In this document: positions 3,871-64,000 of the stretch, one piece after another | Numbering within the stretch: the first letter of the stretch is position 1 | How the letters are laid out: every line of letters begins with the position of its first letter | Assembly (NCBI GenBank): GCA_030390025.1 | Contig: CM059453.1 | Location: 6,758,001 to 6,822,000 of the forward strand | Origin: Squalus acanthias | Taxonomy: Eukaryota | DNA length: 64,000 nt | Direction: 5' to 3' | Made by a program: the position numbers and the translations under genes | Notes under the pieces: generated by a model | What the model saw: only the letters and a program-made list of their open reading frames with translations | Told to the model about the DNA's origin: nothing | Database searches by the model: none

Positions 3871-4038
3871 TCAGTTCTGTTTAATTGCTGCATATTCGCA
3901 GGTCTCCTCATTTTGAATATATTGATGATGTTTGCGGAAGTTGGAGACATTGACTGTCGCGTACGCAATCTCCTCATTATGAGCTCGTTTATTCGATTGT
4001 GCGGCGCCACGACCAGCCTCTGTACACCGATGGTCCCT
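3871..4038 (-). CDS. A1 terminal cytoplasmic exon: RDHRCTEAGRGAAQSNKRAHNEEIAYATVNVSNFRKHHQYIQNEETCEYAAIKQN*
   Basis: Acceptor ccgttacag, phase 0. ITIM IAYATV plus a distal EYAAI motif like the CD33 TEYSEI and MAG AEYAEI motifs. Not in the ORF track. Confidence 0.85.
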   Translation of the reverse strand, partial: RDHRCTEAGRGAAQSNKRAHNEEIAYATVNVSNFRKHHQYIQNEETCEYAAIKQN

Positions 4039-7000
4039 CTGTAACGGAACGTATTTGTGTTAGATGTGGTGTTATTGCAGATATGGAGCAGTATGCGATG
4101 GGAGTGTGCTGTCTGCAACAGAAGAAATCTCACTATTTTATCCCTGGTAAGTTGTCCAAAGGCGTTGATCCATGACATGAGCGTTGTTCAGTCTTGATGC
4201 AAGAAATAAAAAACTTGCATTTGTATATCCGGACGAGTCGATAAGGCTGGGGTGTGGGACTAAATTGGTTACTTCTTTGAAACAGCCAGCACAGGTACAA
4301 CGGGCCGAAATGTCGCTTTCTGTGCTGTAAAATATATGATTCTAAGGCTTCTAAATAGCATACTTGATCCGTGTTTTTATACATTGAGGTACAGAATATG
4401 AAAACAAGGAAGATACGCTAACCTTTATACATCAGTGGTTATGCCTCGGCTGGAGTATTGTTTCCAATTCTTGCATAACACTGTCAATAGGCTGTCAATG
4501 CATTAGTGAGCGTACAGTGCAAATTTACGATAATTAGTGGAGAAATGAGGGACTGCACTTAAACGGACAATCATGGGGAAACTGGAGTTGTCCTCCTGAG
4601 TATAGAGAATGATAAAGGGACATTAGATATTGGTGATCAAAATTCTGCAGAATTTTGATACAGTAAATAAGGAGAGATTGTTTTCACTGGCAGGAGCTTC
4701 GCTAACCAGGTAACACAGATTGAAGATATTTGGGTCAAGAACAAAATGAGAGATGAGAAGGTTTTATTTTTAACTGAGCGAGTTATTGGCCTAGAAATTC
4801 GATTAGGAGGCTTGCAGCGGTGGTAAGGATCACGCGCCATATCACCCACCGCGCCGGCCATTGTGTTTTGGGCCCACAGGAACTTCGGGTCCTGGGCCTC
4901 TCTCAAGAGCCGGCGCGCAGTGCTTGCGTGTCCCAGGGGCGCAGTTAATGTGATGCGACCCCTGGAATCACGTGGGCCATGGAGAGCCAATGGAAGCAGA
5001 CTATCTTTCATTCATAGATTTGAAAGGAGACCTGTCAAATCTATGAATTGAAATCGGCCCCAAAAGAACAGCTAAACCACAAGTAAATTTTTAAAAAAAC
5101 ATCACATTAATAAAATAACTAGTTAAATAAATTAACCACTTTAAACATAAATTTTTTTTTTTTAAATTAAAATACTTTTTAAAAGTTGTAAAAATAAACT
5201 AACCTTTCTTTTAAGTCTCTAAAAAAGATAAACCTGTTGAAAAAAATGTTAAATTATACTTCATTAACTACTTACCTTGTTCAAAAGGGGTCTTACGCTT
5301 CCTTCATACTTGCGTAGAATCTTGCATACAAACCCTCGCGTTGAAACCTGAAAAAAAACCTAAGTGTGCTGCGTGCGCGCAGCCTCTAGTGCGCACGCGG
5401 TTCACCTTGGAACCGCCCCCCCTCCCCCCCCCCCCCGCCGCCATACCGGAAGTGCCGGTTTCCCGCGCATGCGCAGTGCATGCAGGAAACCGGCACTTCG
5501 GGAACGAATACGGGTGAGTACGCACTGAGTACTCACACGTTCTCGCCCGAATTTTTGGGCCATTGTGATCTGGAAAGAACTTCTGAAAGGGCGGTGGCAG
5601 CAGATTCAGTCGTGACTTTCAAAAGGGAATTGGATATATGCATGAACATGAAAAAACATCAAATCAGGTCAAAGGGTGAAAAGCAGTGCAGTGTGACTAA
5701 TTATTTAGCTGTTTCAAACAGCCAGCACAGGCACCGTGGGCTGAATGGCCTCCTTCTTGGCTGTATGATTCTGTTATTATTAAGACCGAAGCGCTGCTAT
5801 GCAAGTAATAACTTTTGGATTCCTGCCACTGTTGTAGGAAAAATGCGGCAACCAGTTAATTGGATGAATGACGAATTAATCAGTTGTAGCTGGTGTTCAT
5901 TGTTGGAGAAATGTTAGCAAGGGCACTGGGACACCCCTCATCCGTCCCCACAGTAGGACCATATGATCGTTACCCTCCATAGGAGGAAACAAACGGGGCC
6001 TCGTTTAACATATAATAGAAAGGACGGGTATTCCGGCAATGCTACACACCTTCAGTGCTGAAATGAAGTTTCAGCCCAGATCATACGTTCAAATGCTGGA
6101 GCGAAGCTTGAAGCCACAAACTTCTTACCCAAAGGTGGGGAACATGCGGCCCACATCGGCAGCAAGATGCAACTCGGAAGTTGCACATAAACCTCAGGAA
6201 TGGCAACGATTATCCCCTCTGTGGTCGCTGACACTTTGTGATCTTGTTGGGCATTTAACAGATGAGACCTAATTGGTAGGGGGTAAGATGGCATTGGAAA
6301 GGCCTTCTTATATTAAGAATGTGTTTTCTGAAGGAACGGCAAGGTGAGAAATACCCCCTAATTGGATTTAGTAGGTCACTACACGTAGAGTCTGTAGCTA
6401 TGTTGCACTCTAAGCGACGTGAGCCGGTTAATCCTCCCTTAATGGTCAACAAGTTTCTGATACTCCAGTTTATCTGTTGGGTATTGCCCGTTATGAGTCA
6501 TTGCTTGTTGAATGCACACCAAACATCCTTCAATTGTCAGCCCAGCTTGGCATCACTTACGTCAGCCTTTAGTGCGTACTGCACCCGACTGTAAATCACC
6601 AAATCATCGTGTGCTTCGGAGACACGTGCAGCTTCTCCGTGTTTCTTCCTGAATAATAACAAATGCAAACGAGGCACTTCTCTTAATTAACTGGTATTTT
6701 TAGTGAAAACACACTACGCCTGCGCGATGAAGGTCGTCAGTGGGTCAGGAAAGGATTAAGAACATAAGAAATAAGAAATAGGAGCAGGAGTCGGCCATAC
6801 GGCCTCTCGAGACTTTTCCGCCATTCAATGTGATCATGGCTGAACTTCGACCTCAACTTCACTTTCCCGCCGGACCTCCATATCCCTTGATTCCCCTAGA
6901 GTCCAAAATTCTATATATCTAAGCCAAGAACATACTCAAAGACTGAGGATCCACAGCCCTCTGGGGCAGAGAATTCCGAAGATGCACAACCCTGTGACTG

Positions 7001-13000: not shown

Positions 13001-16000
13001 ATTCTTTTAGCATACTGAAAACTTTATCCTGATTACACGGGAAGTGTAAACATTCCCTGGCACAAAAAGCGCCAGCGATCAGAAGTCCAAAAATGTCCAC
13101 TTTAAACAGAAGGAAACAGATCCTAATAACATAACAGGAAGAATGTACAGACAGCCTGATTCAAGCAGCCACTAATATTACTCTGTATTTGATGCTTGGA
13201 GTTGCGAACTACTGGTCAGGGATGATTGACCTTCCTACTTTACGCACCAGTTTAGGCTGATGCCCACTGTACTCGCGGGATTTAATTTAAAGGAGATTTT
13301 GATACACGGACGTTCTGATGCAGGTTTCCTTTGAAACTTAATTCTGTATAATTAATAATCACACCTACCTTTTTATCTTCAGCGTGAGTACGGCTGCAAT
13401 TAGAATAACAAGCCCAATGGTTCCTCCGCCTATTATGAGGACGATTGTCCTGGAGAATATTCCTAAAATGTTGGATAACATTGCTCTATATTAGGAATTT
13501 GGTTTAAAACAACAATCTATCTTGGAAGCACATTTGTGAGTGTGAGGGAGCAAGTTTCCTTTATTTTCGGATCACAAAGCTAATGGTAAATGATGTACTC
13601 CACTTGATTCAACCTGATGATCCTTTTGTAAAGCCTTTTGTTCATGTGTTGCGGCCGGGCATAAATTGGAATTAATAAATTAAGATTAACTGAAGTAAAA
13701 ATCTCAATTGACAAATTAAGTTCACTCCACAACCCACCCTAGGAAAAACAGTGGGCTTAATCTGATTGGAATACAGGGCTTCCAAGGTCACCAGTTACAT
13801 CGGTAAGATTTAAAATCTATAGCGATAATTCAATTTTGCTTAGGCTATTGAATATCGGCTCTACATAACCAAATGTGTATGAACACGATTGAAATGAGCA
13901 TGTAGCTACAAAAGGGTAGATTGCAGTTTGCTATCATGTATTGAGATAATTTAGGATTTTCTAAAGAGTTTAACTTGATTCAGAAGCATTTGTTTTCCAA
14001 GATCACTGGCTATTTCTGGTGATCAAATAATTTCAACTTATCTTGAAAATATAAACCGAACAAGTTGCAGAAGAATGAAAGTTAAAATGGATAATGCCGA
14101 CCGCACCATTCAGTTGGTGATTGATCACTGATGAAAGTGGTCCTAACACTAATTCGACATAGATTCCGTATGGACTAACTAAGTGAAGCTGATATTTGCT
14201 GATACTAACACCATTCAGTTACTGACTGACCAGTGATGCACCAACTCCCTTATAGTATTAAATTACAGATAAATTAAACACGTACCCTTAGAGTGGAGCT
14301 GATAATTACTGACAGAATCACCGTGCTCGTTTGCTGCAACACATGAGATCAGGTTTCCGGTTCCGGTTGGGTGAGTCAATCTCAGAGAGCTCTCCATGAG
14401 GTGACTATTCACCGCCCAGGAGATGATTTCCACATCTGACCTGTTCCCAGTGAGGATTCTCCCATTGAGGCCCCACGTGATGTTTCCCGGGGGATTGGCT
14501 CTGATCCGGCAGCTACAGTTCGTCCAATTCTCAGAGCTGGTGCATGTCGGGCCTGCTAAAATTGTGGCTTTATCTAAAAAAAATGGAAACTTCAATAGTA
14601 AATGATCATGTAAATAGTTGCAGTTTCGAAGTACAATTAATTCATGAGTTGAACTTACCATAATAGTTCTGGTAGATATATTTTAAGATGAAGCAACCTA
14701 TGTTGCGCCAGTTGATGGCGTATTATATTTTCACTTATAATAGGTGAGCTCGTTAGGAACAATTTCATATTAAACCTAATTGGTGTTCACTCCAACCGGA
14801 CCTTTCCTGACAGATATTGTGGGGGGGTTCCTCAGAAATAGCAAGGTCTGTGTGTTAATTATCTATAATATACCCACAAACGTGATTCACCCGTCACTGT
14901 TTTAACAGGTGAATTAATTTCAATTTCTTCACTTTGTGTACTGTTTTCAACATTTGCGTTTGTGGTGGACAGAAGTGATTCTTCAATAAATGTCCAGCTA
15001 ACAAGCCGACACTTCAAAGGACCTTGTCTCGGAATATTAACCTGTCAACTCAACATTAGTACAAGTAACAGAAGTTGTATTCAAGCCATTATTTCAGATT
15101 TCATTTTGGAAAACTTCTGCTCATGAAATTGCTGTATGTCAGTTCTAAGGATTGGAATATTGTTTACTTCAGACGACGAGTATTATTTATTAACAATTAG
15201 TTGGTTGAGTAAAGTTCCCAGTAAATGTACTGCTGTCGTAACCTCATAAATGTAAGACCTGCTGCATTTATGGGACATTATTCCAGTTTCCACTCCTGTC
15301 ATACTGAGCGAGATGCAAGGTTAGTTTCCATAATTGGAGCCATCGAGGTAGTTTCCCGCTATTTCCGCGGGAAGGGGTGAACCTATCCCAAACTCATGTA
15401 CACGGGCACCTTCCAGCAAGCAGGCAAGAGAAAATTGGAATTTAATGCAGAATTCTTGAAGTGAAAGGCTACTATCTAATTGAAAATTCATACATACTAA
15501 CATTGGACTGAAATCTGTGTGGAGCGGTTTGTGGTGCCCACGGCATTTTCAGCGATGCACCAATATTCACCGGCGTCCTCAGAACGAATGTTGTGGAATA
15601 TTTGATTTAGTTCACCACTGGAAGATCTGCTGATCTCCTCACAATTTTTCACCCAACTTAATCTGACCTGGGGTTTTCCACAGGCTTTGCAGTATAATAA
15701 TAATGAACTTCCTTCCACAGCTACTATAGTTGAGTTGATGGCTGGGAGGTCCAGTCCATCTTAAACAGGCGTTAATGCAAAACGTGATTGTCGAATAAGC
15801 ATAATTGAGCTCCTAATTAATTCATTATATTGGGTATGGGGATCGGGCGGGAAATATGGAGTTAAGTTCGATGATCAGCCATGATTGCCGGAGTGGTGGA
15901 GCAGGCTCGAATGGGCCGTATGGCCTACTCCTGTTCCAAATTCTTAAGTTCTTATGAAGCTCAACCAGAGCTGAGATCTGGTGTCATAGCTTCAGCTCCT

Positions 16001-19000
16001 AACTCGGCATGGCTTTTGTTGCTTCCATTTATGACTGCCTAAACTCAGAACCTGACTGGAAGTTCATAGAATAAGTAGTAACAATCACATTAAAACATCT
16101 GTTGGAGGCACCATCATTGATTCATGGATATGAATGTTTCTAATGTAACATGACTGATGAGAATTACATGTGAGCCATTCCGAACCTTTTTAACCCCTAA
16201 TAAATTACTTGTGGTAAATGTGCAAATTTGGAGCTGGTTGGCCGACAGGATAAGTCTGTTTAGTTTAGACCGGACACTTACCTTTAATCTCCAAGCTAAC
16301 ATTTTGTGCTGAGGAAGTTGGTATACCATCAATTAGAATTGTGCATCCCAGAATTTTCCCGTCATGAGCAGATGATGGTGTAAAGTTGACGACGGATGAA
16401 ACTGTCCGAGAACCTGAAGTTTCATTGTTAATTTCTGCTCCAACTTGAGTATCCATTGCGGGTGGAAGGGACACATTATCAAGAATCCAATTCAGTTTCA
16501 GGTTGCCATCCGGGCAGTTGTGGGTGACGGAACAGGACAATCGTGCAGTTTGTCCAGCGATCAATTCCCCATAACCTGAAATCTCTGGCATTTCTATAAA
16601 AACGGGAGAAAACCAGTTTGTTAGGTACATTTCAGGGTTAAAACGGGGGATCGATGGCTTACAATTAAATCTGAGAAAGAAATAACAAGAAAATCACATT
16701 TTGTTCATTTTTCTCTGCCACGTGTTGCAAGTTTGTTGACCTTTCTAAATTACTCCTCGCAGTTGTACTGCACTTTTATGCCTCATCGGGTAACATATGG
16801 CACCACTTAATTAAACATTAGTCGTATATCTCCAAATTATTTGTAGCATGGATATTGTCCAGTGAACAAATTTTGCACGCTGGACTTAGAATTAACATTA
16901 ACTCCTCAAATGTCACGAATATTTCATCCTCTCGTATACCTCGTTCTGCACCAGCAATTGCCTATGTGGTGGTGATGAATGCAGACCCAGAGACAACTCG
17001 ATTCTGTCGTCAAGAAACGTCAATATAGAACGATAATGCTCAAGACATGGACAGACCAGACAAAGGACGGGTAACACCGCCTTGTGTGGGAGAACCAGAG
17101 CAGGTTCCTCGCTTGTAAATCTGAAGAAGGCTTCAGCAGAAATACTATTTGTATCCGTGGGATTTGAATGAACAAATATATTATAACTTGAACTGATTTT
17201 CACGTTACTGAAATATCTACTTTTTAATTAAGTTCTAATTAAAAGCGGGGTAAATGAGCGCTGGATAGGGAAAGGCACGAACAAAGACTGCATTAATTCA
17301 ACGCCTTTTAAGTACTTGTGACGTCAAAAGACGCTTCACCAAAAAGTAACTTGTATTGTAATCAAGCAGCCATTGCCGACGGTAAACACAGGAGATTATT
17401 GGAGAAGATATTAATTTGTTTGGAATTAAGGATTAGGTAGAAATTGCAATATAAACTGTTTTGAAGTGACGAAGCAGCGAGTCGCTGTTAAGCGCAGTTG
17501 CTCAGAATAGTTGGATCCCAGAACGGTGTCCCACAGGGTTGTCCTGTGGGATTGCTTCTATTCACTGTGTGCATCAATAATTTGGATAAAACGCTAAAGA
17601 GAATGATGTCAACATTTCCCGGCAGGAATTAATTGGATTGCAAAAAAATTAAAAATGGGTGGGGTGTACAATGAGAGGTGCATCCAATATCGTCAGTTTG
17701 ACACCCATGCATGCCAACCTTGCAAGTGCAACTCCCAGGAGATAATGAGAGAACTAAAGCGAGTTTCAAACGGATACTGCAGATATAGTAGAATGGGGAG
17801 ATAAGAGGCAGATATCATAAAAGTTCAGAAAATATGAGGTGTTAGATGTTCATTTGAATCGTAGTAAGCTGGGAGATCTGGAAGAGCAGAGTAATTTGGG
17901 GTCAGGTTCATGAGGCAGTAAAAGCAGCACCTCCAGTGGGAAATTGTAGGATGATGTTTCTGGAGCTCTGGTTTTAATGGCAAGAGATCAATAATATAAA
18001 ATCGAGAATAGTGGAGATTCTAACGAGAACAGTAGTTAGTTCACAGTTGTAGTAAGAATGTGGGTATTGGGCTCCAGTCTATAGGAAGGATTTAGGGCGG
18101 ATTCGCGTAGTTTCTGGCTGGTATGAGGAAGTTTAAATAACAAAAAAATATTTAAAACTTGAGGCAGATGTAATTAGTTTAGAACTGATTTTCTGATGAT
18201 TTGACAGAAGTGCTTAAACTTATTAAGCAACGGGACAGAGAAGATAGAAGGAGACTGAAGTAGAATTTGAAATGGCCGCCCTGGTCAAATCTCTCACTCC
18301 AGATAATTCACCCATTGGAGCAACCGCCTAGTTAAATTGCCTTTCATTTCATTGGAAATAATGAGCTGATGGTTTATGTATTGCAAGTAGGACCAAAAAT
18401 CGTCAGTTTTAGGTTCAGTCAACAAGTACTAATCTATCCTCATGTGAACATTTTCAGAATAGGCTCGACTGGTATTTGAAGGGAATTGCAAAAAAGGGAT
18501 ATGGGAACTGAGCAGACACATGCGATTCGGAGTTTTGCTCATGTGAAGGACAAACAGCCACACTGACTGTCTGGGCCGAAGGGCCTGTTTTACTGCTGCA
18601 ATTTCAATATACTTCTGTGTTTAGGATATCAGACATCTGCGACCCTTATCAGTATCCCTGCACCTTATGTTTGAACAACCCTTTGAGATCGGTCAGGGAT
18701 ATTTTAATATTTGCCCACTTTGCACATAGGTTGATTCATACTGAAGCACTGGAGTGAAAATGTACAAAAGGAACAAAGGGAATACTCACCTAAAACAGAA
18801 AGAAATACGTCAGTACACAGAGTGCGACGTCTATTAGTGGACCAGGCCGAAGCGATCTCGATGCTGAGTTCGTATGTACCCTCATCACCCTTCCTGATAT
18901 CCTTTAGCAGGAGGGTACACTGTTTCATTTCAATATTACACTTGAACTTAGCTCTTTCACCATAGTTATAATGCTGCCTGTATGGATCTTTAGAATCACA

Positions 19001-19818
19001 GATAATGGAGAAACCTTGGTTACCAGGAGCATGTTCCCTCTTTAACCACGTCATATCAGCGATTCTACGATCGACTGGATAATCAAACGTACACCAGATC
19101 TCTGCACATGAACCGGCCACCGCCGACACAGCTTTTGGCATCAGCACAGAGAATTCAGCACTAAAAACAACTGCGAAAAACAAATTAGACACCCTTTAAT
19201 TAGCCATTCAAAATGCATTTCAGCATCTTTATCATCCATTAAAGTATTTGTTAATTGACAAATAATCGCCCATCACAATAGCAATTAAAATATCAGTGAA
19301 GGCCTTTTCAAAATCAAGAAAAAATTCTAAATAAAATCCAAACACAACAACTATTGAAATGGTCATAGGAGTACCTATTTGATGGGAGATTTATGAAACG
19401 GTAATACACATATATAATACTCATCTAAAAATCGAATACATATCCAATAACAAGTAAGCGTACACCCAATAAAAATTCAAATTAAATATACATTAAAATA
19501 TTGATCAAAATAAATATTAAACATCTATTGAATCTCCTTTGAATCACTCAATCAATATGAAGTAAGCTTTATTAAATGTGCTTTACAATAAAATATTCTG
19601 AAAATTCCTATATTTAAATATTATTTGAATAGGCTGTATACGCTGTAACACAACAACAACGCACGCGTTTAGCAATCATGAAATTCCTATTTCACAAGTT
19701 CTGAAATCAATAACAAAAAAATCATTCATATTCTTTATTTTGCTCTTCCTTTCCCACAAGATATAAATCACTTGCAGAAATTGTAAAGAAGCATCAGAAA
19801 TGTACCTTCTGTCAACAT
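3871..19818 (-). CDS. Siglec/MAG-like type I Ig receptor gene A1 (8 coding exons, about 543 aa; V-C2-C2-C2-TM-ITIM tail)
   Basis: Exons 19776-19818, 18790-19170, 16282-16593, 15502-15759, 14286-14573, 13369-13462, 6561-6648 and 3871-4038 join in frame (1632 nt) with no stops; Ig exons are phase 1-1. Confidence 0.88.
4240..5770 (+). mobile_element. Degenerate CR1 LINE 3' fragment, interrupted by a MITE
   Basis: RT C-terminal remnants (cctcggctggagtattgt...) and a 3' UTR (gggctgaatggcctccttct..gtatgattct); uninterrupted in copy 2 at about 46620-47350. Confidence 0.65.
4788..5561. mobile_element. MITE (774 bp), PIF/Harbinger-like, specific to copy 1
   Basis: TIRs GGCCTAGAAATTCG / CGAATTTTTGGGCC with ATT on both sides; the empty site is visible in copy 2 (gagttgttgtaatc, about 47128-47141). 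Confidence 0.88.
5860..6150 (-). mobile_element. Degenerate Deu-domain SINE
   Basis: acggggcctcgtttaacat...aaaggacgg...ggcaatgct matches the SINE at 1-200; duplicated at about 47440-47710. Confidence 0.55.
6561..6648 (-). CDS. A1 cytoplasmic exon 1: (R)KKHGEAARVSEAHDDLVIYSRVQYALKAD
   Basis: Acceptor ttattattcag, donor GTAAGT; phase 2 in matches the TM exon and phase 0 out matches the last exon; ITIM VIYSRV; nearly identical in copy 2. Confidence 0.88.
6757..7505 (-). mobile_element. Older CR1 LINE 3' part (continues at 10843-10940 and 11700-12025)
   Basis: AAGAACATAAGAAAT tail repeats and RT C-terminal remnants; orthologous to about 48325-50030 in copy 2. Confidence 0.8.
7508..10842 (-). 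mobile_element. CR1 LINE, 5'-truncated: ORF1 esterase end plus frameshifted APE-RT ORF2; specific to copy 1
   Basis: ORF1 SGNH-like ...YKRDGLHL; APE motifs NARSIRNK, ITET, MGDFN; RT motifs PQGSGLGP, FVDD; (TATGTTTC)n tail; absent from copy 2. Confidence 0.93.
10941..11699. mobile_element. MITE (759 bp) inserted in the older CR1
   Basis: TIRs GGGCCAGAAATTCG / CGAATTTCTGGCCC with AAT/ATT flanks; an internally deleted orthologue lies at about 49145-49703. Confidence 0.88.
12403..12465 (-). other. Candidate 63-nt cassette exon of A1 with in-frame stop (RRRPSTANISPTTATT*)
   Basis: Acceptor ctttgcttctcggatag, donor GTGAGT, phase 2-2; conserved in copy 2. Confidence 0.4.
13369..13462 (-). CDS. A1 transmembrane exon: GIFSRTIVLIIGGGTIGLVILIAAVLTLKIKR
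   Basis: Acceptor acattttag, donor GTAGGT; uncharged hydrophobic stretch followed by basic residues. Confidence 0.9.
14286..14573 (-). CDS. A1 membrane-proximal Ig domain (MAG D5-like, C-x7-CxC...NP...W...C)
   Basis: 288 nt, phase 1-1; CTSSENWTNCSCRIRANPPGNITW...ISCVAANEHG. Confidence 0.92.
15502..15759 (-). CDS. A1 third Ig domain (C2/I-type)
   Basis: 258 nt; EGSSLLLYC..GKP...W...DAGEYWCIAEN; weaker splice sites (tttaag / GTTAGT). Confidence 0.85.
16282..16593 (-). CDS. A1 second Ig domain (Siglec C2 with extra Cys, CSVTHNCP)
   Basis: 312 nt, tttttatag / GTAAGT; resembles MAG CMVPDNCP; FTPS..HDGKILGC. Confidence 0.92.
17420..18605 (+). mobile_element. Highly degenerate CR1-like LINE remnant
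   Basis: RT-like remnants (ggtgtcccacaggg...tgcatcaataatttggat) and a 3' end (ctgggccgaagggcctg); shared with copy 2 (about 55520-56700). Confidence 0.5.
18790..19170 (-). CDS. A1 N-terminal V-set domain, Siglec-type
   Basis: 381 nt, ttttcgcag / GTGAGT; GSCAEIWCTFDYP...W...R...CTLLL...DEGTYELS. Siglec B-E disulfide pattern, no F-strand Cys. Confidence 0.93.
19776..19818 (-). CDS. A1 putative leader exon MLTEGTFLMLLYNF
   Basis: Hydrophobic 14 codons + 1 nt, the same 43-nt size as the leader of gene B, but it requires a GC donor (GCAAGT). Confidence 0.5.
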
Positions 19819-20714
19819 TAAGAGAGGCAGCAGCACGGAACTCCTCATGGCTGTAAAATGCTGCCGATTTCACTCGCAAAATGAAGAACCCAATTCACAA
19901 TTTACACCATTCAGATTTCAGCATTCTTCTTTCCAGTCACTTCTTGGATTTCTTTGCTAATCAGCATCAGACTATCGGGGAAGTCCGATTCGGTTCCTAC
20001 CGATCTGTAGGAACAGTGCTCACTCAATCAACTCCGTTGGTGAGGTAGGCAGCTAACACATCTTGTACATGGGCTGCGTGTGACCGACTGTTACAGAATA
20101 TGATGTTATAGTATGTTTAAACGTTGCAAAAGAATACTTAATACAGAAACAATATCTCTCTCTCTCGAACAAACACACACAAACACCAAATGTACTGTTA
20201 TTTATGATATTGATATGTTGGCGCCTTTGTCAGAATGGCACCGCCCACGCTTGCAGACGCCTCTGACTCACATTTCACACATATTCGCTTTCTGGCAGCT
20301 AATACGAGATGAATGTTGAACAGTTGTTGACTACAGTTAGTTAGCATGCTGCAGTCTATGGACGTGTGGTTTCGTCACCTTCTTGAAGGAGCGCTCCAAC
20401 ATGTATCTCTGACGTCCTAGATAGGAGCTGTTTGACAGTAGACCGTTTGACGCTGTGGTAAACAGCCTTTCTTCGAAATATTTAACTCTTTACATTCACA
20501 CTCAAGCTCAGTAATTTTGCAGAACTTAAGACAAATGCCAACCTATTTGTTGCAGTGCTTTTATTAAGATTTAGTTATGCGCTCTGGGACGTGTGAAATG
20601 GACTTAAGGTTCCTGTCGTAAATACAAATATTGCTGTACACAGACACAGATAAAATTGATTGAAGCAACATTTTCGGTCAAACAGATCAGTGTTGTCAAT
20701 ATCGGGAGACACTG

Positions 20715-21430: not shown

Positions 21431-23214
21431 GCAGGGATTTTTTCCCGAAGATATAAATAGCCACATTCTTTCCAGCAGCGCTGAGACTCGAATCTAAAAT
21501 CTCAAGTTATCACTTCACAGTTCTAGCACTAAATTCAGTAAATTCATAAACCTGTATTTGTAGCAACTCGGATCTCAATGAGTTAATTTCAGCAGATTTC
21601 AGCTCGCTGGACTGTTAATATAACCAGCTGAGGTCACTTATAAAAATGGCAGTTTACGCTCTTGAAACTGTTTTCTGAGAAACACTTGAACATTTGACAT
21701 TTCAGATACGTGTTGTGCCCCCGACCAACTGAAGGTGATCAACCCACACGTCTGCAGACAACGGCTACAGGACAAACCACGGCTTTACACTTCAAACACT
21801 CACAGTTCAAGGGCTGATAAATAGCTCAGTGTGTGGGAGTTGAGAGTCGAGGCGTCTAGAGTTGATGTAGAAGGCTATTTTATATATTGCAATATAAAGT
21901 GCCACTGCCTGTCCTATAACTGTGCAGATGATGAGGGGGCTGGTTGTATCGCCGATCAGGTTTCTTTTGCAGTAGGTGAGCCTCATATATCCTGCAACAG
22001 CGGGCCACACATTGATGTAAACTGTTATATTTGAGGAGTCCCAGATTCCCAGCAGTTTAGATCACCAACATTTGAGGAGTGGCGAAAGCTGTGTGAGCAA
22101 CCACGGTTCCCAATGATTGGTGGGTGGCGAACAGCTGACCTCCTAATACTGTGATTCGATTCATTACGAACTCCAATATATTACTGTCGAACCGAACACA
22201 GAAACTAAATTACTTATATCAGAAATAAAAACAATTTATGCCATTTTGATATCGTCCACCGCCTCTAGTCATGAAGAGTATTACATTTATTTCCATTCTG
22301 CTATTTAGCGCAGGTAAAATATTCATTTTTAATATTGTATGTCAGAAAGAATAACAATGTTTTAGACATAGCATACGGTTAGTCAATGATTTGTGCATTC
22401 ACACAGTGGGTATTTAATGTATATTTTATTCGGAACTTTATTATGTATTATATAGGATTGATTTGATAATTACGCTATGACTTATTGGCTTGCAATTGAA
22501 TATTTAATAGAATTTAATGAGTTTTAGAGAAAATTGCACGAATTTCATTAGATGTACGAATGAATATGTTAGTGGGTGTTTAAATGTTAAATTAATAGTA
22601 TTTAACTTGACGGTCAGGGTATGTTTATGTTGCTATATTATTGCGGATTTCAATGGGTGTATAATTTCTATTTTTTCACCATTTGTCCATAATTCACGAT
22701 GGTCTGTGAAGGTGCCGTGGAAGGTGTCGGCGGTGAACAGGTCATGTGCAGAGATCCCGTGCACATTTGATTATCCAGCCTATGGCCTCAGTCCACTGGG
22801 TATGTGGTTAAAGTGGGATCCTGATCCTGTAACCTCAGGGGTCTCGATTATCTATGATTCCCGGGATTCAGAAAACGTGCCCTTGAAATATAGCGGTCGA
22901 GCTGAGTTCACCGGCGAATTTATAAAGAAACAATGTTCCTTACGGTTAAAGGACATCAGCAAGCTCGATCAAGTTGCCTATTATTTCTTATTGAAGATCA
23001 TCACCGCCCAGAATAACATAGAAAGATATTCTTCCGGATCTAAGGTCACTCTTTCTATTTTATGTAAGTATTTGAATTGTTCCTTTATAGTTTATCTTCC
23101 ATCTCCTCAGTGTCATTTAATTTGAGCTTAAATGTAAAGATTTCTTAATACTCATGGCCCAAGTTACAGGCTACAGCGGCAGGGCTGGTACACTGCATGA
23201 TACCCATGATTTTG

Positions 23215-24685
23215 TTATAGAATAGAATCATAGAATCATAGAATCTTACAGCACAGAAGGAGGCCATTCGGCCCACCACGCCTGTGCCGGCTCTGTGAAA
23301 GAGCTATACAATTTAGTACCACACCCTATGTTTTTCCACAGAAATTGTAGATCAGCCTTGTTTTAGAACAGCTCTAATTGCTTTAAAAAAATTCCCATTG
23401 AATCGTATTCCACCAGCCTTTCAGGTGGTGCATTCTAAATCTTAGCAACCCTCTGGGTGAAGAAATTTCACCCCATTTCCACACAAGTTCTTATGTTCTT
23501 ATGTCTGCTATAAGGACAACAAGCACAGCTTCTCCAATCTCTCCACGAAACTGCACGTCCTCATCCCTGGTATTATCTTGGCAAAAGGCTTCAGTACCTC
23601 CTCCAGGGCCTTGACCTCCTTCCTCAAGTGTAATTCCGAGAATTGTACCCAAAACTCCAGCTGAGGCAAAACCAGAGATTTGAGAAACTTGAGCATGACT
23701 TCCTTGTTATTGTTTTCAATGCCCCTATGTAAAAAGAACCGAAGTGTCCTATGTGCTTTCTTTTTAAACGCCTGGTAAATTTAACCTGCCATCTTCAAAT
23801 AAATGTCAATATGTACCCCATGTCCCTCTGTTCTTGCAGCCTCCCTCAAAATGGGACTATTTAGAGTATGATGCCTCTCCATATATTTCTCCGAAACTGC
23901 ATTTGTGCTTCACACTTATCCGCAGTAAATTGCATCTGCCATGTGCCTGCCCATTTTAACAGTCTGTAGATGTACTCCCGAATTCTGCTACAATCATGCT
24001 CACTATTTAATACGTTGCCAAGTTTTGTATCACCCGCAAACTTCGAAACGTTACTCCCAATACGCAAGTCTAGGTCATTTATATAGAAAAAGAATAGCAA
24101 TGATCCTAATATCGACCCCCTGGGGGATCACACATCAGACTTCGCTCCTGTCAGAAATGCAGCCGTTCACCACGACTCTCTGCCTCCTATCCCTTAGCCA
24201 CTTTCCTAATCACGTTGCCACCATCCCTTAAATACACTGTTCTTCTATATTCCGAATAGTCTGTTATGAGTTACTTCATCCAATGCCTTTTGAACGTCCA
24301 CATATACAGCATCTACTGTACTAACTTCATCAACCCTCTCTATTACTTCATCAATAAATCAATCGGGATAGACAGTCACGATTTGCATTTAACAAAGCCC
24401 TGCTGGCTTCCCTAATAAACCCATGCGTCTCCAAGTGAGAATTAATCTCGTCCTTCACAGTGTACTTATTTAGCTTTCCCACCATTGTCGTTTGACTGAT
24501 TGAGCTGTAGTTCCCAGGATCCTCCGTCTCCACATTTTGAACAGCGGTGTAACAGTTGAAATCCTCTAGTCTTCTGGTACCACTCCAATATCCATGGAGG
24601 ATTGAGAGATTGTGGTCAGAGATTCTTCTATATCCATCCTCGCTTCTTCAGCAACCTCGGATGAATCCCATCTGGACCAGTTGAC
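23215..24685 (-). mobile_element. Degenerate CR1 LINE (RT and 3' end)
   Basis: (ATAGAATC)n tail; YINDLD...SKFAGDTKLG; copy at about 61255-62840. Confidence 0.85.
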
Positions 24686-24909
24686 TTGTTATGTTTTCAC
24701 CTGAACAGATATTCAGCACTGCCATTCTTACACACTTACATAAATTGGCTGTAATGTTCAGTTAGAAAGAGAAACACTTAAGGTTGTTTTCAGATGTACA
24801 GACTGTCGGGTCAAAATTCAATCCTTCGTGGATTCTGGACAAAAATTTCAAGGTTTGTACTTCTGAGGGGGAATAAGTGGACAAGACTTAAGGATAGGAG
24901 GGATATCTC

Positions 24910-25160
24910 AACAATGCAATAGTGACCAGATGATCTGTTTTAGGTGCTGGTTGATGCAAAATATGAATCAGGACACGGGACATTTGAAATAATACATTGG
25001 GATATTTTACATCCACCTGTGAGGGAAGACGGGTCATCGGTTTAACGTCTCATCCATCAGATGTCATCTCCAGCATTGTAGTATTGCATCAGTACTGCAA
25101 TGGAGTGTCAGGCTACAGCTTGTGATTTAGTCTCTGAAGTGGGGCTTGAACCCCAAACCG
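24910..25160 (-). mobile_element. Degenerate Deu-domain SINE
   Basis: tacatccacctgtgagg..gacggg..tcggtttaacgtctcatcc; copy at about 63065-63310. Confidence 0.65.
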
Positions 25161-27984
25161 GGTCTTGCTTTCTTCTGATATATTTGCACTTTCCCGCTGT
25201 TGTTAATGGGAACAAACGAGGATAGTTAACCTTTTCCTCTCCCTGAAGACCATCTGCAGCGCTCCTCTCACGACGTTAAATGAGGTCAAATTAATTATAA
25301 GCAAGAGTTGAATTCACCCCTGTCCCTCAAATGGTAAATTAAGCGTTTCACGTGACACTGAGCAATTATTCTAAGAGTATCCTGGATTCTATCCCAAATG
25401 CAGATATGGAACATAATCTTGGACCCAGTTTTCTATGTTATGTCAAACCTAATGTTGAGTTGAAGCACTTGTGTTCAATAGAGTGGTGACTGAACTATAA
25501 GAAACAGGACAGCAATGAATAATTCATGTGATATAGTGGGTGATAATTCGGTTCAGGAACACATATATCAATCGATTGATTCCGTAACCGTTAAGTAATA
25601 ACTGACAATAGGCTCCTTCCCCTGCACCATAGAGTCATAACGGCACAGAAGGAGGTCATTCGGCCCATCGAGTACTTGTCCGTCACCAGAGAACAATGGA
25701 AAAAAACAATAATTTTTATTCAAGATATTATCTGATACGTTGGGCTGAATCGCCTTGACTTTCACTCCATATTTTATTATTTTGAAAGCCACTGTAACGC
25801 GAATTTCTTTCTCTCCTTACAGATAAGTCCTGGATATCAGTCTCTGGGGAACTGATTGCTGGACAACCAGCACATTTGATCTGCTGAGTCACCACCAGTT
25901 GCCCGTCCGCCAAACCTGAACTGATGTGGATTCAGGACGAGGATAAACGTCCTTCACTGCAGGATAGTAAAACTTCAAGACACAGTGGAAACTTATCGAT
26001 GGTTCCTGGACGCTTTCATCAAGTTTCACCTTCACCCCATCACTGGACCATAAAAGGAAAAGGATGGGATATAAGCTTGCGGTTGATGGTGTCGTGGGTA
26101 CCGTTCAAGAAAACTTAGACTGGACTGTAAGTAACTGCTCTACCCTTCATTCTACCATCCTGTTGGTAAATAGGATCCAAACGTATCTTTATTCTCAGTG
26201 GAGTGATAGCTAGCCTGAAAAATTGAAAATGTCAAAACTGCGATGGATAGATTTTTTTTTAGGAAGGGTATTAAGGGTTACAATAAAGCAAAGGCGGGTA
26301 GACGGAGTTAAGATATGGATTAACTATGATCTAATTGATCAGTGGAACAGACTCGAAGTGCTGAATGGCCTATGTTTCTATAATCAATGAACCAAATTCA
26401 CAATCTGAGATTTATTGTAATTTATATTTTTTAACCTTGATACAGACCCGTGGAGTAATATTGGTCGCTCCGTGGTTGTCATTTACGTCAAATATTATTC
26501 CAAAGGCTCCTAATTCCTGATAAAGTTGCAGACAGAGAGTACCTGAAACAGAGGGTCTGTGTCGAGTTGGCTGGGGCGCTGGTCGGGTTACTACAATTGG
26601 CCTGAACAGCTCTGTTTAACGGATGTGAGAGCCCACTGTTCTTGCTCTGGGAGGAATGGCCGCTTGATTGACTTATCGGTGGAGCAGAACCACGTCCAGG
26701 CAGTCACTACAACTCTTTGAAGAGAAGAGGAGGAAAGGTTAATATAAAGCTTGGCTCAGATCTAAATAAGTTTGTCGGTGGAACATCAACAATCTCAAGC
26801 TGGCTTTTCAATTTACAGTTGACAATATAACCACCATATCTGCTTTGATATTCTTCTTTGGTTGTCAACCGGATTGTTATTTGAACCTCTGCTCCGACAT
26901 TTTCCTATAACACCAATGATCTTGCGTGTTTCAGATGCACTGTGGAAACCAAGCCTCAATTCCTCTATAGTAAAAGTGGAAGGAAGTTCATTATTATTAT
27001 ACTGAACGGCCCTGGGGAACCCGACGGTCAGTTTAACATTGCTCCGAGAAGGGACACAGATCAGCAGGTGAACTAAAGCAGATATTTCACAGCATTAGTT
27101 CTGTTGATGAGGGGGAGTATTGTTGCGTGGCTGAAAATAACCTGGGCACCGCAAACAGCTCCAATCAGATTTCGGTACAATGTAAGTGTTATGTGATCTT
27201 ATTTAATTTATAAAGGGACATTAATGGTCGGTCTCAAATGTTGTTTGGTACCGCTCCTCTGAACGTTCGCGGCGCTATCTAAATCGGTCGGCTTAGTGAT
27301 GACGAGTGGGCAATACTCTTGGCGCGCCGGTACTCGGGCCAGCGGAACCCCAAGGTTTCCTTTTCGAGGCAGAAGGAGCTGAATAGGACAATTAGAATGG
27401 TGGCAGTGATGGAATAAAGCGGGTTATTCTGGAATATTATGCGCAGTCTCACCCGGATCAGTAGCTCCACATCTAACGCACTACTTTCTGTTACAGAGAC
27501 AAGACAAGTATAGAAACACTGTTGTGAGAGGGGCTCCATCAAACCAGTCAGCTCAAAGTGAAGAGGTCCTGTATGCATCTGTCAGTGTTTCAAACGTTCG
27601 AAAGCAGGAGCGATATCTCCAACACGAAGATTCCAGTGAATAAGCCGCAATTAAAAGCAAATGAAAATCAGCGGCATTCACCCTATTGTGACAGATGGAA
27701 CTGGTCAATATCTTCACACAATTGTTTTTTATGATATCGAACAGAAACTCGCACTCAAGGAAGTGCTGTGATAATGGAGATCACTCAGAGAATAATAGCT
27801 AATATTTTAACATCTCTTTGTGAGACGATTTGATTTACAATCCCAAAGACTGTCCACTCCAAACATACTTCCGAAACTGTGCAGGAAGGGGGCGTGAATG
27901 TTCAATGTAATTTTAAACTTTTTTATCGCTTTAATAATAAAATAACTATTTCCCAGTTCGAACTTTTATTTCATTTCGGAACAA

Positions 27985-31030: not shown

Positions 31031-32149
31031 TGTGGCCCTGCAAATTGCCAAACAAATATTTACTAATCATCCTTACAGTGAAAGCGCTTTAATAATCCGG
31101 TTGGCTCTCCTGTTTAATAGTCTATTAATACATTGCATAATATGTTTGAAAGCAGCTGAGAGTGATTCAATAACAGGCAATAGTCAACACAAAGAAAGTA
31201 GCTTGAATTTTATTGTGTTCACAGGCCGCAACATGGGTCTGCACTGCACCGATTGGTCCAAGCCTTCAGTCAGTGTGCAGCTTGTTTAACATGTCTAATC
31301 AGATCAGAAGCGTTTGAAGTGTCCTTCAGATTTCCTATACACTCTATCTATCGGTGGGACAATCGGAAATGTAGCATTATGGAGATCAGAGTGCACGGTT
31401 TCCCGTTCCTCCCCATTCCTTCGTCCGCGGACGCTTCCTCCTTAGGTAATAAATCAGCATTAGGTTAACGGGGGGTTGGCAATGCGTTGCTTTTACCGAT
31501 GCACTTGTGCAATGCAGCTCCGAAAGTAATCAATTCGCCCATTGATCAATCTCGGCTGAGGGAATCCAAATGCACTCGGAGCCCCGGGTTGGAGAGGGGC
31601 AATTCATCCATAGTCTTTATCGCTGTTCGGTGAACCCTGATGCAAGTAGCCTTTTCGAAATCCAATGAGTACAGGAGCAGACACCGGGGTATTGGGCCTC
31701 GGGACAAACCTCATGGTGAAGGGAGGTATCTGCAAAAATAGCAGCTTAAGCGAGAGATTGGAGAAATCGAACTCCAGCAAGCGTTCAATTTGGAAGTGGA
31801 GAATATTGGGGCAAATACTGCAAGCAAGAACAACGAGTGTTTCCAAAGTCTTGATTGTAAAAACGTGTCGTATCTCTTCGTTGTTATAATTGGTCCATTT
31901 GGAAAAAGAAACATTTGAGATTCAGAGAAGCGTCCTCTCCAAGTTCTGGTCCTTTTCAGGCAAATTTAATAGCTGCATATTCGCTCATCTCCATCCTCTG
32001 TACATATCCGTGCCCTTGAGGAATACTTGAAAAGTGCACAGTGGCGTAAGTAATTTCTTCCTTCTGCTAAGTTGAGTTGGATATCACTTCCCTGCCGTCA
32101 CTGTCTGGATGATCCCTCTGCAACAGAAACAACACGTGCAGCGTATAAA

Positions 32150-32320
32150 AGAGGACACGTGGTACAGATACAGAAATAAAACGGGGTACAGGTAGACAAA
32201 GAAAACTTGGTACAGATACACCAAGAACACGTGGTACCGATCCAATAAGAACACGTTGTACAGATAGACAAAGAACACGTGGTACAGATACACAAAGAAC
32301 ACGTGGTACAGCGATACCAA
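32150..32320. repeat. 24-bp minisatellite, about 7 units
   Basis: AAGAACACGTGGTACAGATACACA-type units. Confidence 0.9.
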
Positions 32321-46229: not shown

Positions 46230-49200
46230 TCAGTTCTGTTTAATTCCTGCATATTCGCAGCTCTCCTTATTTTGAATAAAGTGATCATGTTTGCGGAAGT
46301 TGGAGACATTGACGGTCGCGTACGCAATCTCGTCATTCTGAGCTGGTTTATTCGATTGTGCGGCGCCCCGACCAGCCTTGGTACACTGATCGTCCCTCTG
46401 TAACGGAAGGTATTTGTGTTAGATGTGGAGTTATTGCAGATATGGAGCAGAATGCGATGGGAGATTGCTGTCTGCAACAGAAGAAATCTCACTATTTTAT
46501 CCCTGATAAGTTGTCTAAAGGTTCTGATTCATGAAATGAGCGTTGTTAAGTCTTGATGCAAGAAAGAAAGAACTTGCAATTGTCTATCCGGATGAGTTCG
46601 ATAAGGCTGGGGTGTGCGACTAATTTGCAAACCTCTTTCAAACAGCCAGCACAGTTACTACGGGGCGAAATGTCTCTTTCTGTGCTGTAAAAATCTATGA
46701 TTCTAAGGCTTCTAAATCCGGGTTTTAATAAATTGAGGTACAGATTATGAAAACAAGTTAGATACGGTGAACCATTACACATCAGTGGCTATGTCTCGGC
46801 TGGAGTATTGTGTCCAACTCTTGCATAACACTGTCAAAAGGATGTCAATGCATTAGAGAGCATACAGTGCAAATTTACTAGAATTATAGGAGAAATGAAA
46901 GACTGCACTTAAACGGACAGTTTAGGGAAACTGGAGTTGTTCTCCTTAGTTTAGAGAATGATAAAGGGAGATTTGATATTAGTGATCAAAATTCTGTGGA
47001 ATTTTGATACAGTAAATAAGGAGAGATTATTTCCACTGGCAGGAGCTTTGATAACCAGATAACACAGATTGAAGATATTTGGGTCAAGAACAAAATGCGA
47101 GGTGAGAAGGATTTGTTTTAACTCAGCGAGTTGTTGTAATCTGGAATGCACTTCTGAAAGGGCGGTGGGAGCAGATTCAATCGTGACTATCAAAAGGAAA
47201 TTGGATATATGCGTGAAGATGAAAAAACATCAAATCAGAGCTTAGGGTAAAAAGCAGTGTAGTGTGACTAATTATTTCGCTCTTTCAAACAGCCAGCACA
47301 GGCACCGTGGGCTGAATGGCCTCCTTCCAGGATGTATGATTCTGTGATTATTAAGACCGAAGCGCTGCTATGCAATAATAACTTTTGAATTCCTGCCGCT
47401 ATTGTAGGAAAAATGCAGCAACCAGTTAATTGGATGAATGGCGAATTAATCAGTATTAGCTGGTGTTCATTGAGGGAGAAATGGTAGAAAGGGCACTGGG
47501 AAAACTCTCATCCATCCCCACAGTCGGACCATATGATCGTTTCCCTCCATAGGAGGAAACAAACGGGGCCTCGATTAACATCTAATCGAAAGGACTGGTC
47601 TTCCGGCAATGCTGCACACCTTCAGTGTAGAAGTGAAGTATCAGCCCAGATTATAGGTTCAAATGCTGGGGCGAAGCCTGAAGCCACAACCTTCTTACCC
47701 AAAGGTGGGGAACATGGGGCCCACATCGGCAGCAAGATGCAATTCGGAAGTTGCACATAAACCTGAGGAATGGCAACGATTATTCCCTCTGGGGTCGCTA
47801 ACACTTTGTGATCTCGTTGGGCATTTAACAGATGAGACCTAATTGGTAGGGGGCAAGATGACATTGGAAACGCATTCTTAGATTAATAATTTGTTTTTTG
47901 CAGGAACGCCAAGGTGAGAAAGACTCCCTAATTTGATTTAGTCGGTCACTACACGCAGAGTCTGCAGCTTTGTTGCACTCTCAGCGACGTGAGGCGGTTA
48001 ATCCTCCCTTAATGGTCAACGAGTTTCTGATACTCCAGTTTATCCATTGGGTATTGCCCTTTATGAGTCATTGCTGGTTGAAAGCACACCAAACATCCTT
48101 CAATTGTCAGCCCAGCTTGGCATCACTTACGTCAGCCTTTAGTGCGTACTGCACCCGACTGTAAATCACCAAATCATCGCGTGCTTCGGAGACACGTGCA
48201 GCTTCTCCGTGTTTCTTCCTGAATAATAACAAATGCAAACGAGGCACTTCTCTTAATTAACTGGAATGTTTAATGAAAGCACACTGCGCCTGCGCGATGA
48301 AGGACGTCAGTAGGTCAGGAAAGACTTAAGAACACAAGAAACAAGAAATAGGAGCAGGAGTAGGCCATGCGGCCCCTCGAGACTTTTCCGCCATTCAATA
48401 AGGTCATGGCTGAACTTCGACAGCAACTTCACTTTCCCGTCGGACCTCCATATCCCTTGATTCCCCTTGAGTTCAAAAATCTATCTATCTCAGCCATGAA
48501 TATACTCAAAGACTCAGCATTCACAGCCCTCTGGGGCAGAGAATTCCAAAGATTCACAACCCTCTGAGCGAAGAATTTCCTCCTCATCTCGTTCTTAAAT
48601 GGCTTACCCCTTATCCTGGGATTATGCCCCCTATTTCTAGACACACCAGACAGGAGAAACAACCTGTCAGCGTCTAGCCTGTCAATCCCCTTCAGAATCT
48701 TGTATGTTTCAAAGCGATCACCTCTGATTCTTCTAAACTCCAGAGGGTATAGGCCCATTCTTCACAAGCTCTCATCATAGGACAGCCCTCTCATCCCACG
48801 AATCAACCTAATGAACATTCGTTGCAACGCCTCCATGGCAAGTATATTCTTCCTTAGATAAGGAGAACAAAACAGTGCACAGTACTCCAGGTATGGTCTC
48901 GCCAAGGCCCTTTACAATTTTAGCAAGACTTCCTTACTCTTATACTCCAACCCCCTTGCAATAAAGGCCAACATACCATTGCCTTCCTTATTGCTTGCTG
49001 TACCTGTATGCTAGCTTTCTGTGTTTCTTGAACGAGGACAGCCATCATTTAAAAAATATTATCTTTGCTATTCACCATACGAAAGTGAATAACCTCACAT
49101 TTCCCGACATTATTCTACATCTGCCACCTTAGAGCACACTCACTGGCCAGAAATTCGGTCTCCATTGTGAGTACGCGCTGTGTACTCACCCGTTGACCCA

Positions 49201-57910: not shown

Positions 57911-59347
57911 TATGAGAGGCAGCAGTACGGAACTCATCATGGCTGTAAAATGCTGTCGATTTCACTCGCAAAATGAAGAACCCAATTCACAATTTACACC
58001 ATTCAGATTTCAGCATTCTTCTTTCCAGTCACTTCTTGGATTTCTTTGCTAATCAGCATCAGACTATCGGGGAAGTCCGATTCGGTTCCTACCGATCTGT
58101 AGAAACAGTGCTCACTCAATCAACTCCGTTGGTGAGGTAGGCAGCTAACACATCTTGTACATGGGCTGCGTGTGACCGACTGTTACAGAATATGATGTTA
58201 TAGTATGTTTAACCGTTGCAAAAGAATACTTAATACAGAAACAATATCTCTCTCTCTCGAACAAACACACACAAACACCAAATGTACTGTTATTTATGAT
58301 ATTGCTATGTTGGCGTCTGTGTCAGAATGGCACCGCCCAAGCTTGCAGACGCCTCTGACTCACATTTCACACATATTCGCTTTCTGGCATCTAATACGAG
58401 ATGAACGTTGAACAGTTGTTGACTACAGTTAGTTAGCTTGCTGCAGTCTATGGACGTGTGGTTTCATCACCTTCTTTAAGGAGCGCTCCAACATGTATCT
58501 CTGACGTCTTAGATAGGAGCTGTTTGACAGTAGACCGTTTGACGCTGTGGTAAACAGCCTTTCTTCGAAATATTTAACTCTTTACATTCACACTCAAGCT
58601 CAGTAATTTTGCAGAACTTAAGACAAATGCCAACCTATTTGTTGCAGTGCTTTTATTAAGATTTAGTTATGAGGTCTGGGACGTGTGAAATGGACTTAAG
58701 GTTCCTGTCGTAAATACAAATATTGCTGTAACAGACACAGATAAAATTGATTGAAGCAACATTTTCGGTCAAACAGATCAGTGTTGTCAATATCGGGAGA
58801 CACTGTTTTTCTCATTGGCCACCCGGTGCGGAGGGAATGTCGGAGGACCTCCCAGTTGGTCTGCTTCTGGGCCTGGATAAGGTGGCCATTCACAGGTCCA
58901 GGCATCACCCGGTCCAGGGGATCATTTGGTCTGACTGCCTGCCTCCCACCACGTTCGTGTGTCCCTGGAGTGGGAGCATGCGGTGATTGCCTGTAATTTT
59001 TAATTCCAGATTTATTTAATTTACTGAATTAAAATACCCCCAGCTGACATGTTCTAGCGCGATCTTTTTAAAACTACCCCGATCTCAGGGGAATTGCGCC
59101 GAAAAGTACCGCATTCGAGCGGATAATTCAGGCCCTTGTATTTACATATCGCCATTCACAAACACAGTACATCCAAATACAGTGTTAAACCCAAACTGAG
59201 CCCCGATGTTGACCACACATCATTTCCACTTTCGGCCTCAAAGCAAACTGGATCTTGTGTGGAGCTTCATTGAGCAGGGTGCATTGCACCAACCGCCACT
59301 CTGGGATTGACCAGACATTATGGGTTATTTTATTGTTAAAGCAAAGT

Positions 59348-63300: not shown

Positions 63301-64000
63301 TTGAAACCCTAACCGGGTCTTGCTTTCTTCTGATATCTTTGCACTTTCCGCTGTTGTTAATGGGAACAAACGAGGATAGTTAACCTTTTCCTCTCCCTGA
63401 AGACCATCTGCAGCGCTCCTATCACGACGTTAAATGAGGTCAAATTAATTATAAGCAAGAGTTAAATTCACCCCTGTGCCTCATAGTGTAAATTAAGCGT
63501 TTCACGTGACACTGAGCCATTAGTCTAAGAGTATCCTAGATTCTATCCCAAATGCAGATATGGAACGTAAACTTGGACCCAGTTTTCTATGTTTTGTCAG
63601 ACCTAATGTTGAGTTGAAGCACTTGTGTTCAATAGAGTGGTGACTGAACTATAAGAAACAGGCCAGCAATGAATAATTCATGTGATATAGTGGGTGATAA
63701 TTAGGTTCAGGAACACATATATCAACCGATTGATTCCGTAACCGTTAAGTAATAACTGAAAATAGGCTCCTTCCCCTGCACCATAGAGTCATAACGGCAC
63801 AGAAGGAGGTCATTCGGCCCATCGAGTCCGTGTCCGTCACCAGAGAACAATGGAAAAAACAATAATTTTATTCAAGATATTATCTGAGACGTTGGGCTGA
63901 ATCGCCTTGACTTTCACTCCATATTTTATTATTTTGAAAGCCACTGTAACGCGAATTTCTTTCTCTCCTTACAGATAAGTCCTGGATATCAGTCTCTGGG
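60311..64000 (+). pseudogene. Siglec-like paralog B2 (leader 60311-60353, V 60723-61103, next exon starts at 63975; truncated by window)
   Basis: Near-identical to B1, including the CAT acceptor; downstream lesions lie outside the window. Confidence 0.75.
61255..62840 (-). mobile_element. Degenerate CR1 LINE (copy of 23215-24685)
   Basis: Same element; keeps about 125 bp that is deleted in copy 1. Confidence 0.85.

Follow-up and report, generated by a model that had tools for sequence, protein, structure and literature searches.

An ITIM-bearing Siglec-like gene of Squalus acanthias belongs to a shark and ray clade that lacks the arginine with which Siglecs bind sialic acid

A 64,000-nucleotide stretch of Squalus acanthias DNA (contig CM059453.1 of assembly GCA_030390025.1, positions 6,758,001 to 6,822,000, forward strand), here called the window, holds a tandem duplication of ∼38 kb. 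In each unit a Siglec-like gene on the minus strand, A, and a second gene on the plus strand, B, are arranged head-to-head (Table 1). The two A copies, A1 and A2, each have 8 exons with GT-AG ends and consistent phases and encode 543 amino acids with no internal stops, in the order leader, V domain, three more immunoglobulin (Ig) domains, uncharged transmembrane helix and a tail with Tyr motifs. In A1 the tail carries two ITIMs (immunoreceptor tyrosine-based inhibitory motifs), VIYSRV and IAYATV, and the ITIM-like CEYAAI, for which A2 has CEYAGI. An earlier sequence-only reading had singled out what is exactly the V exon of A1 (19170–18790, minus strand); it claimed that the Arg through which Siglecs bind sialic acid is absent from all four V domains, and that an ITIM-bearing Siglec scaffold has been repurposed for another ligand, or that a basic RRR patch compensates.

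The absence of the Arg was borne out. Mouse sialoadhesin was the best PDB match for the A and B V domains in phmmer searches (E-value ∼7e-11), and the Ser of A and the Leu of B align gap-free to its R97 in DSGTYNFR. The F-strand Arg site is therefore occupied by Ser in A1 and A2 (codon AGC) and by Leu in B1 and B2 (TTA), two different replacements as had been proposed. All the quoted shark motifs are present, and the CD33 motif given for comparison, DNGSYFFR, was verified. None of the four domains has Arg, but the count of four overstated the case: A1/A2 and B1/B2 are near-identical tandem duplicates (V exons differing at 8 of 378 and 3 of 372 nucleotides, respectively), so they amount to two cases rather than independent ones, namely one functional lineage and one pseudogene. 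Nor is a missing Arg unusual in V domains of the Siglec-like kind: of 143 taken from outside the elasmobranch set, 34 lack it (2 of these being an alignment gap). Among the same 143, most of whose taxa were not looked up, 109 have Arg and 9 have Lys.

An AlphaFold2 model of the A1 V domain, built on a 48-row alignment, reached a mean pLDDT (predicted local distance difference test) of 89.6. Structural comparison, which had been suggested as a check, gave sialoadhesin as the best fold: the top five Foldseek matches and the top three VIA matches were all sialoadhesin (Z 17.2, root-mean-square deviation 1.8 over 112 residues), with CRIg tied within 1 Z unit. Gene A also has the Siglec layout, an N-terminal Siglec-type V-set followed by C2-set domains in a single-pass type I protein, and, at the sequence level, the Siglec cysteine pattern (the Cys of GSC, IWC and QCT, and HNCP in domain 2). 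Its V domain has no Cys at the F-strand core position, which would fit B-E intra-sheet rather than B-F pairing, and by homology to MAG C165 the HNCP Cys would be the inter-domain disulfide partner; in MAG that pair is C37-C165 (PMC5150538). The strand-A aromatic (W2 of sialoadhesin) is Phe in A and Trp in B. The ITIM and ITIM-like tail and a transmembrane helix without Lys or Arg are features of CD33-related inhibitory Siglecs; the uncharged helix rules out a DAP12-type activating receptor. With four Ig domains, three Tyr motifs and that helix, A does not have the features of a MAG, sialoadhesin, CD22 or Siglec-15 orthologue, and in V-domain trees built without CD22 and Siglec-15 it falls outside the sialoadhesin-like clade. 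As to orthology with the mammalian CD33-related cluster, the elasmobranch genes stand apart in the V-domain trees, though deep support is weak. The scaffold assignment thus stood for gene A, on the cysteine pattern, the sialoadhesin fold and the three tail motifs in an intact frame. Two defining binding-site features are nevertheless missing, the F-strand Arg (Ser in A, Leu in B) and the glycerol-packing aromatic of strand G (sialoadhesin W106, MAG Y127; Arg in A under both registers considered below, Tyr in B), and gene A should be called Siglec-like.

Compensation by the RRR patch fared poorly. None of 11 A-clade relatives has the full RRR. Arg is found in 0 of them at the first position, that Arg being private to gene A, and in 0 at the middle one, where 5 of the 11 have Tyr. 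At the third position 5 have Arg and 1 has Lys, and none of the other 23 rows is basic; the 5 relatives without a basic residue there include both Ile-bearing genes of Stegostoma and Chiloscyllium. Which strand register applies is ambiguous. On the spacing of sialoadhesin, whose W106 precedes the core Val by eight residues, the third Arg occupies the W106 column, as in the 36- and 48-row alignments. With CD33/Siglec-7 spacing (aromatic, Gln at +6, core at +9), the Tyr of the relatives is the aromatic, and the 173-row alignment agrees. Because the Pristiophorus sequence matches the latter spacing, Gln included, we prefer the CD33/Siglec-7 register, under which the middle Arg likely replaces the glycerol-binding Tyr in this species; the AlphaFold2 secondary structure (F 94–104, G 111–123) does not fix the hairpin register. 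Under either register gene A has neither an Arg at the F-strand site nor a G-strand aromatic, and judged on sequence comparison RRR compensation is unsupported, if conceivable given that 5 of the 11 relatives share the third Arg and that two registers fit. The extra cysteines are indeed present in A (that of IICD in A1 only), but they are nearly private and no family feature. Gene A keeps the three canonical Siglec cysteines. Among 32 other rows, none has the Cys of FKCN or that of IICD and 1 has the TLCT Cys, which rules the extra cysteines out as a family disulfide.

The closest proteins are shark and ray Siglec-likes; word-index homologue searches returned only 1, 6 and 3 proteins, and the sampling took a single member of each 50% or 90% cluster in a few annotated genomes. 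In a 36-row tree gene A lies in a 13-row clade (support 96/81*) whose Arg site reads Ile in 7, Ser in 4, Leu in 1, Thr in 1 and Arg in 0. A 173-row FastTree, from which near-duplicate isoforms were left out, gave an A clade of 15 rows (0.94), with Ile in 7, Ser in 4, Thr in 2, Leu in 1, Phe in 1 and again no Arg. The clade includes six sharks (Heterodontus, Heptranchias, Pristiophorus, Scyliorhinus, Stegostoma and Chiloscyllium) and two rays (Narcine and Hypanus). Its sister, the Heptranchias domain P0009, has Arg (support for sister plus clade 98/95*), and Arg is kept in 8 of 12 elasmobranch domains outside the A clade and the window. Seven A-clade relatives (P0003, P0004, P0005/P0024, P0014, P0048, P0162 and P0165) keep 1–3 cytoplasmic Tyr motifs; an eighth, P0166, shows none.

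Grouping genes A and B in one clade was rejected by the approximately unbiased (AU) test (p-AU 1.8e-5), which excludes a single shared Arg loss and makes the loss in B separate from that in A. All 20 Arg-less rows as one clade were likewise rejected (p-AU 0.001), and at least 5 changes at the Arg site are needed on a 37-row tree (from which P0114 and P0039, near copies of P0162 and P0040, and all but 9 outgroup rows were left out). Because none of the 15 V domains of the shark-and-ray clade carries Arg, its loss there is probably old. In the simplest history Arg would have been lost once on the A-clade stem, before the shark-ray split, with sporadic later losses elsewhere; Ser also occupies the site in two Heptranchias genes. 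Sharks and rays split roughly 250–300 million years ago. The codon of Ile, the commonest residue at the site, is one base from an Arg codon and from the Ser codon AGC. Arg may thus have changed to Ile first, judging by residue counts and codon distance rather than by ancestral-node reconstruction.

Table 1. Features of the window and their coordinates (position 1 is the first base of the window; motif positions are on the strand named).
Feature	Position	Strand	Remarks
A1 exon 1, signal peptide	19806..19848	-	similar to the leaders of P0004 and P0014 (shark homologues)
A1 exon 2, V-set domain	18790..19170	-	Pfam V-set and Ig_CD22 above cut-off
A1 V-exon motifs	DEGTYELS 18886; FKCN 18946; IICD 19006; NRRR 18835; RTLCT 18826	-	
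A1 Ser codon AGC at essential-Arg position	18863..18865	-	
A1 NRRR, F-G loop / start of strand G	18824..18835	-	
A1 exon 3, C2-type Ig, HNCP Cys	16282..16593	-	C2-set_2 20.6 bits, just below cut-off 21
A1 exon 4, Ig domain	15502..15759	-	splice sites AAG/GTTAGT; A2 has CAG/GTAAGT
A1 exon 5, membrane-proximal Ig-like	14286..14573	-	76% identical to P0003 247-345; no Pfam match
A1 exon 6, transmembrane helix, no charged residue	13369..13462	-	
A1 exon 7, cytoplasmic, ITIM VIYSRV	6561..6648	-	
A1 exon 8, ITIM IAYATV, ITIM-like CEYAAI, stop	3871..4038	-	
A2, intact paralogue	46230..57940	-	same 8 exons, 543 aa
A2 V exon	57263-56883	-	IIYD where A1 has IICD
A2 DEGTYELS	56979	-	
A2 Ser codon	56958-56956	-	
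B1 pseudogene	22271..27670	+	leader at 22271
B1 V exon	~22683-23063	+	Leu codon TTA 22988-22990; acceptor reads CAT
DQVAYYFL	B1 22967; B2 61007	+	
B1 second and third Ig exons	~25823-26120; 26935-27180	+	in-frame stop plus frameshift in each
B1 last exon	27494-27670	+	stop at second Tyr motif
B2, 5' part only	60311..64000	+	leader; V exon ~60723-61103; continues past window end
Third Siglec-like gene, remnant last exon	31962..32129	-	ITIM and ITIM-like; one in-frame stop
Assembly gap (N) between duplicated units	38796-39494		699 bases

In A1, exon 4 carries an additional Cys and splice sites that look weaker; as the relatives P0003 and P0004 are without the domain, the exon may be skipped in splicing. 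The intron after the membrane-proximal exon contains a short remnant (14215 and 52260, minus strand) of a duplicated end of that exon. An open-reading-frame-like exon at ∼12470 was ruled out as the first cytoplasmic exon, as P0003 puts that exon at 6648–6561. Three sequencing runs carrying the same species label, whose RNA status is a guess, gave only short low-depth contigs and no exon joints against 13300–19900. One 187-nucleotide contig from run X1 is ∼91% identical to the V exon (19022–19172) and matches neither A1 nor A2 (13 differences, 2 of the 9 listed matching A2); it is possibly a further A-type paralogue. For exon 3, 10 of the 12 listed differences in the contigs match A2. None of these contigs was used as evidence.

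B1 is a pseudogene. Besides the lesions in Table 1, its V exon has CAT at the expected acceptor and no in-frame AG in the 100 bases upstream. The membrane-proximal, transmembrane and first cytoplasmic exons were not found in B1; with its third Ig exon and its last exon only ∼300 bases apart, these three are missing. B2, whose V exon has the same dead CAT acceptor, is probably also broken, and B1 and B2 are decayed copies, uninformative on function. By eye, the remnant of a third Siglec-like gene looks like the P0168 tail of Heptranchias; P0168 also has Thr and not Arg in its second V domain. No further exon of the third gene was found in 27200–46000.

The two units have not diverged evenly. 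They differ by 1.0–2.4% per 500 bases across 19000–23499 (duplicate ∼57100–61600), a tract that takes in the leaders and V exons of A and B as well as the upstream region they share, and by 4–19% in 11300–19000. The tract is most simply, and likely, the result of recent gene conversion, a process known for Siglec-5/14 and Siglec-11/16 (PMC6288428). A low-divergence V-exon region (only 1–2.4%) and the assembly gap between the copies would also be expected if A1/A2 and B1/B2 were haplotypes put in tandem by the assembler, leaving one A and one B gene. The remainder differs by 4–19% and has different repeat insertions, and we regard this as very unlikely; even so, the main conclusion would be unchanged. 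Broken retroelements of long-interspersed-nuclear-element type (endonuclease- or reverse-transcriptase-like by eye) lie at 7500–11900 and 40470–43400, placed differently between copies, and tandem repeats of ∼69-base and ∼57-base units lie at 35179–35696 and 21250–21430, respectively.

On balance we favour, with moderate confidence, the reading that A1 and A2 are Siglec-type inhibitory immune receptors whose ligand is other than sialic acid and, from knowledge of the family, most probably a protein. Repurposing for another ligand, as had been proposed, is the best inference and is strengthened because the whole A clade is without Arg. In MAG, R118A and Y127A each abolish ganglioside binding (PMC5150538), and gene A has neither type of residue under either register. 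A protein or a non-sialic glycan would dock on its GFC face, which is now apolar where the Arg was and evolves fast in the F-G hairpin. Once engaged, the receptor would have its ITIMs phosphorylated by Src-family kinases and would recruit SHP-1/SHP-2, as in CD33-related Siglecs, so that A would act as an inhibitory leukocyte receptor. Precedents exist in Siglec-XII, which without Arg still recruits SHP (PMC11343606), and in Siglec-5/14, which bind a bacterial protein independent of sialic acid (PMC6288428). A1 and A2 have kept open frames and GT-AG junctions at a proportion of synonymous differences (pS) of 0.081, with B1 and the third gene broken. Several points weigh against this reading. 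Between A1 and A2 the proportions of nonsynonymous and synonymous differences (pN/pS) are 0.060/0.081 (74 and 31 differences), which does not support purifying selection. Support for an A clade that excludes P0009 carries the star in one tree (96/81) but not in another (14 rows, 96/75), and Arg-bearing A-type genes could have been missed because the sampling took one representative per cluster from few annotated genomes. Finally, Siglec-6 can do without its essential Arg in binding sialylated glycolipids (PMC10122656).

That last precedent also speaks for a relocated Arg, the third of NRRR (Tyr-Arg in relatives), that would grip the carboxylate and let A bind sialosides or another anionic glycan by way of a site that is shifted or non-canonical. 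By sialoadhesin spacing this Arg lies beside the lost one, and the basic residues at its position are confined to the clade. Under the CD33/Siglec-7 spacing, however, the common Arg sits one place past the aromatic, where Siglecs use the backbone (MAG T128); not all relatives have a basic residue there, the A1 V domain carries almost no net charge (17 Lys and Arg against 16 Asp and Glu), and the correlation has no statistical weight because one clade is one event. We therefore consider a relocated Arg unlikely. Unlikely, too, is a ligand-less or decaying receptor like human Siglec-XII, signalling tonically or drifting, in which Ser, RRR and free Cys would be relaxed-selection noise. The pN/pS near 0.75 would fit this, as would the A1-only cysteines in the V and third Ig domains, the splice sites of A1 exon 4, the private cysteines, the G-strand Tyr lost in this species, and the dead neighbouring B and third genes. 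Decay may apply to the A copies of this species alone. Against it as an account of the clade, Arg-less A-type genes with ITIM tails are annotated as whole proteins in eight species, among sharks as well as rays, in contrast to the recent, polymorphically null Siglec-XII (PMC6288428).

A non-sialic ligand thus remains our preferred reading for gene A. A broader version can be put forward only tentatively, as somewhat short of an even chance: that sharks and rays hold an ancient, expanded Siglec-derived inhibitory class that abandoned sialic acid before their split, that recognizes a conserved non-sialic self or pathogen ligand via a remodelled F-G hairpin, and that lies head-to-head with Arg-bearing sisters. 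A clade that keeps its ITIMs but has no Arg in sharks and rays alike would mean that, early in the history of jawed vertebrates, the Siglec scaffold was put to stable use for a different ligand. What is worth keeping is the clade-wide Arg loss; the four-domain, RRR and cysteine details deflate. Primates are already known to have Siglecs that lack the Arg and carry ITIMs (PMC6288428). PMC7226832 describes the Arg as conserved in teleost CD22, MAG and Siglec-15 and states, of bony fish, that their genomes have no inhibitory ITIM-bearing CD33-related Siglecs, a statement on which our finding bears. The accessible portions of 10.64898/2026.08.25.746757 and PMC8455134 held nothing further on the Arg of sharks, and a literature search whose scope left out most subscription journals, including older comparative Siglec papers, gave no account of an Arg-less elasmobranch Siglec clade. 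In its Ile, Ser and Arg relatives the locus provides a natural test set.

Among known proteins, the nearest are the elasmobranch Siglec-likes of Pristiophorus japonicus (UPI00398EA648), Heterodontus francisci (XP_067883557.1), Heptranchias perlo (XP_067831324.1) and Narcine bancroftii (XP_069758101.1; RefSeq/UniRef). Like A, they have a Tyr-motif tail and no essential Arg, the shark V domains being 37–54% identical; unlike A, they have Leu or Ile where A has Ser, the G-strand Tyr is retained in most, and none has the RRR or the FKCN Cys. Automatic names of elasmobranch relatives ('sialic acid-binding Ig-like lectin 8/12/13') ignore the missing Arg and are likely wrong on function. Sialoadhesin/Siglec-1 and MAG/Siglec-4 give the best V-domain sequence and fold matches and share the B-E and Ig1-Ig2 cysteines with A, yet retain the Arg and the G-strand aromatic; compared with sialoadhesin, A has an F-G hairpin four residues longer, four Ig domains and three Tyr motifs. 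The D-strand Arg of the non-canonical Siglec-6 site has an equivalent in A, as in at least 33 of 36 aligned rows, and Siglec-6 alone used it so. By analogy, A would function in the manner of the CD33-related Siglecs without the Arg. In human Siglec-XII and great-ape Siglec-5/-14, likewise, the Arg is replaced and ITIM and ITIM-like motifs are kept, and no sialic acid binding is reported for these Arg mutants in the available text (PMC6288428, PMC11343606). Orthology is not implied. The known Arg-less Siglecs are recent, species-limited primate accidents, whereas in the case of A the Arg is lacking throughout an ITIM-keeping clade that spans sharks and rays.

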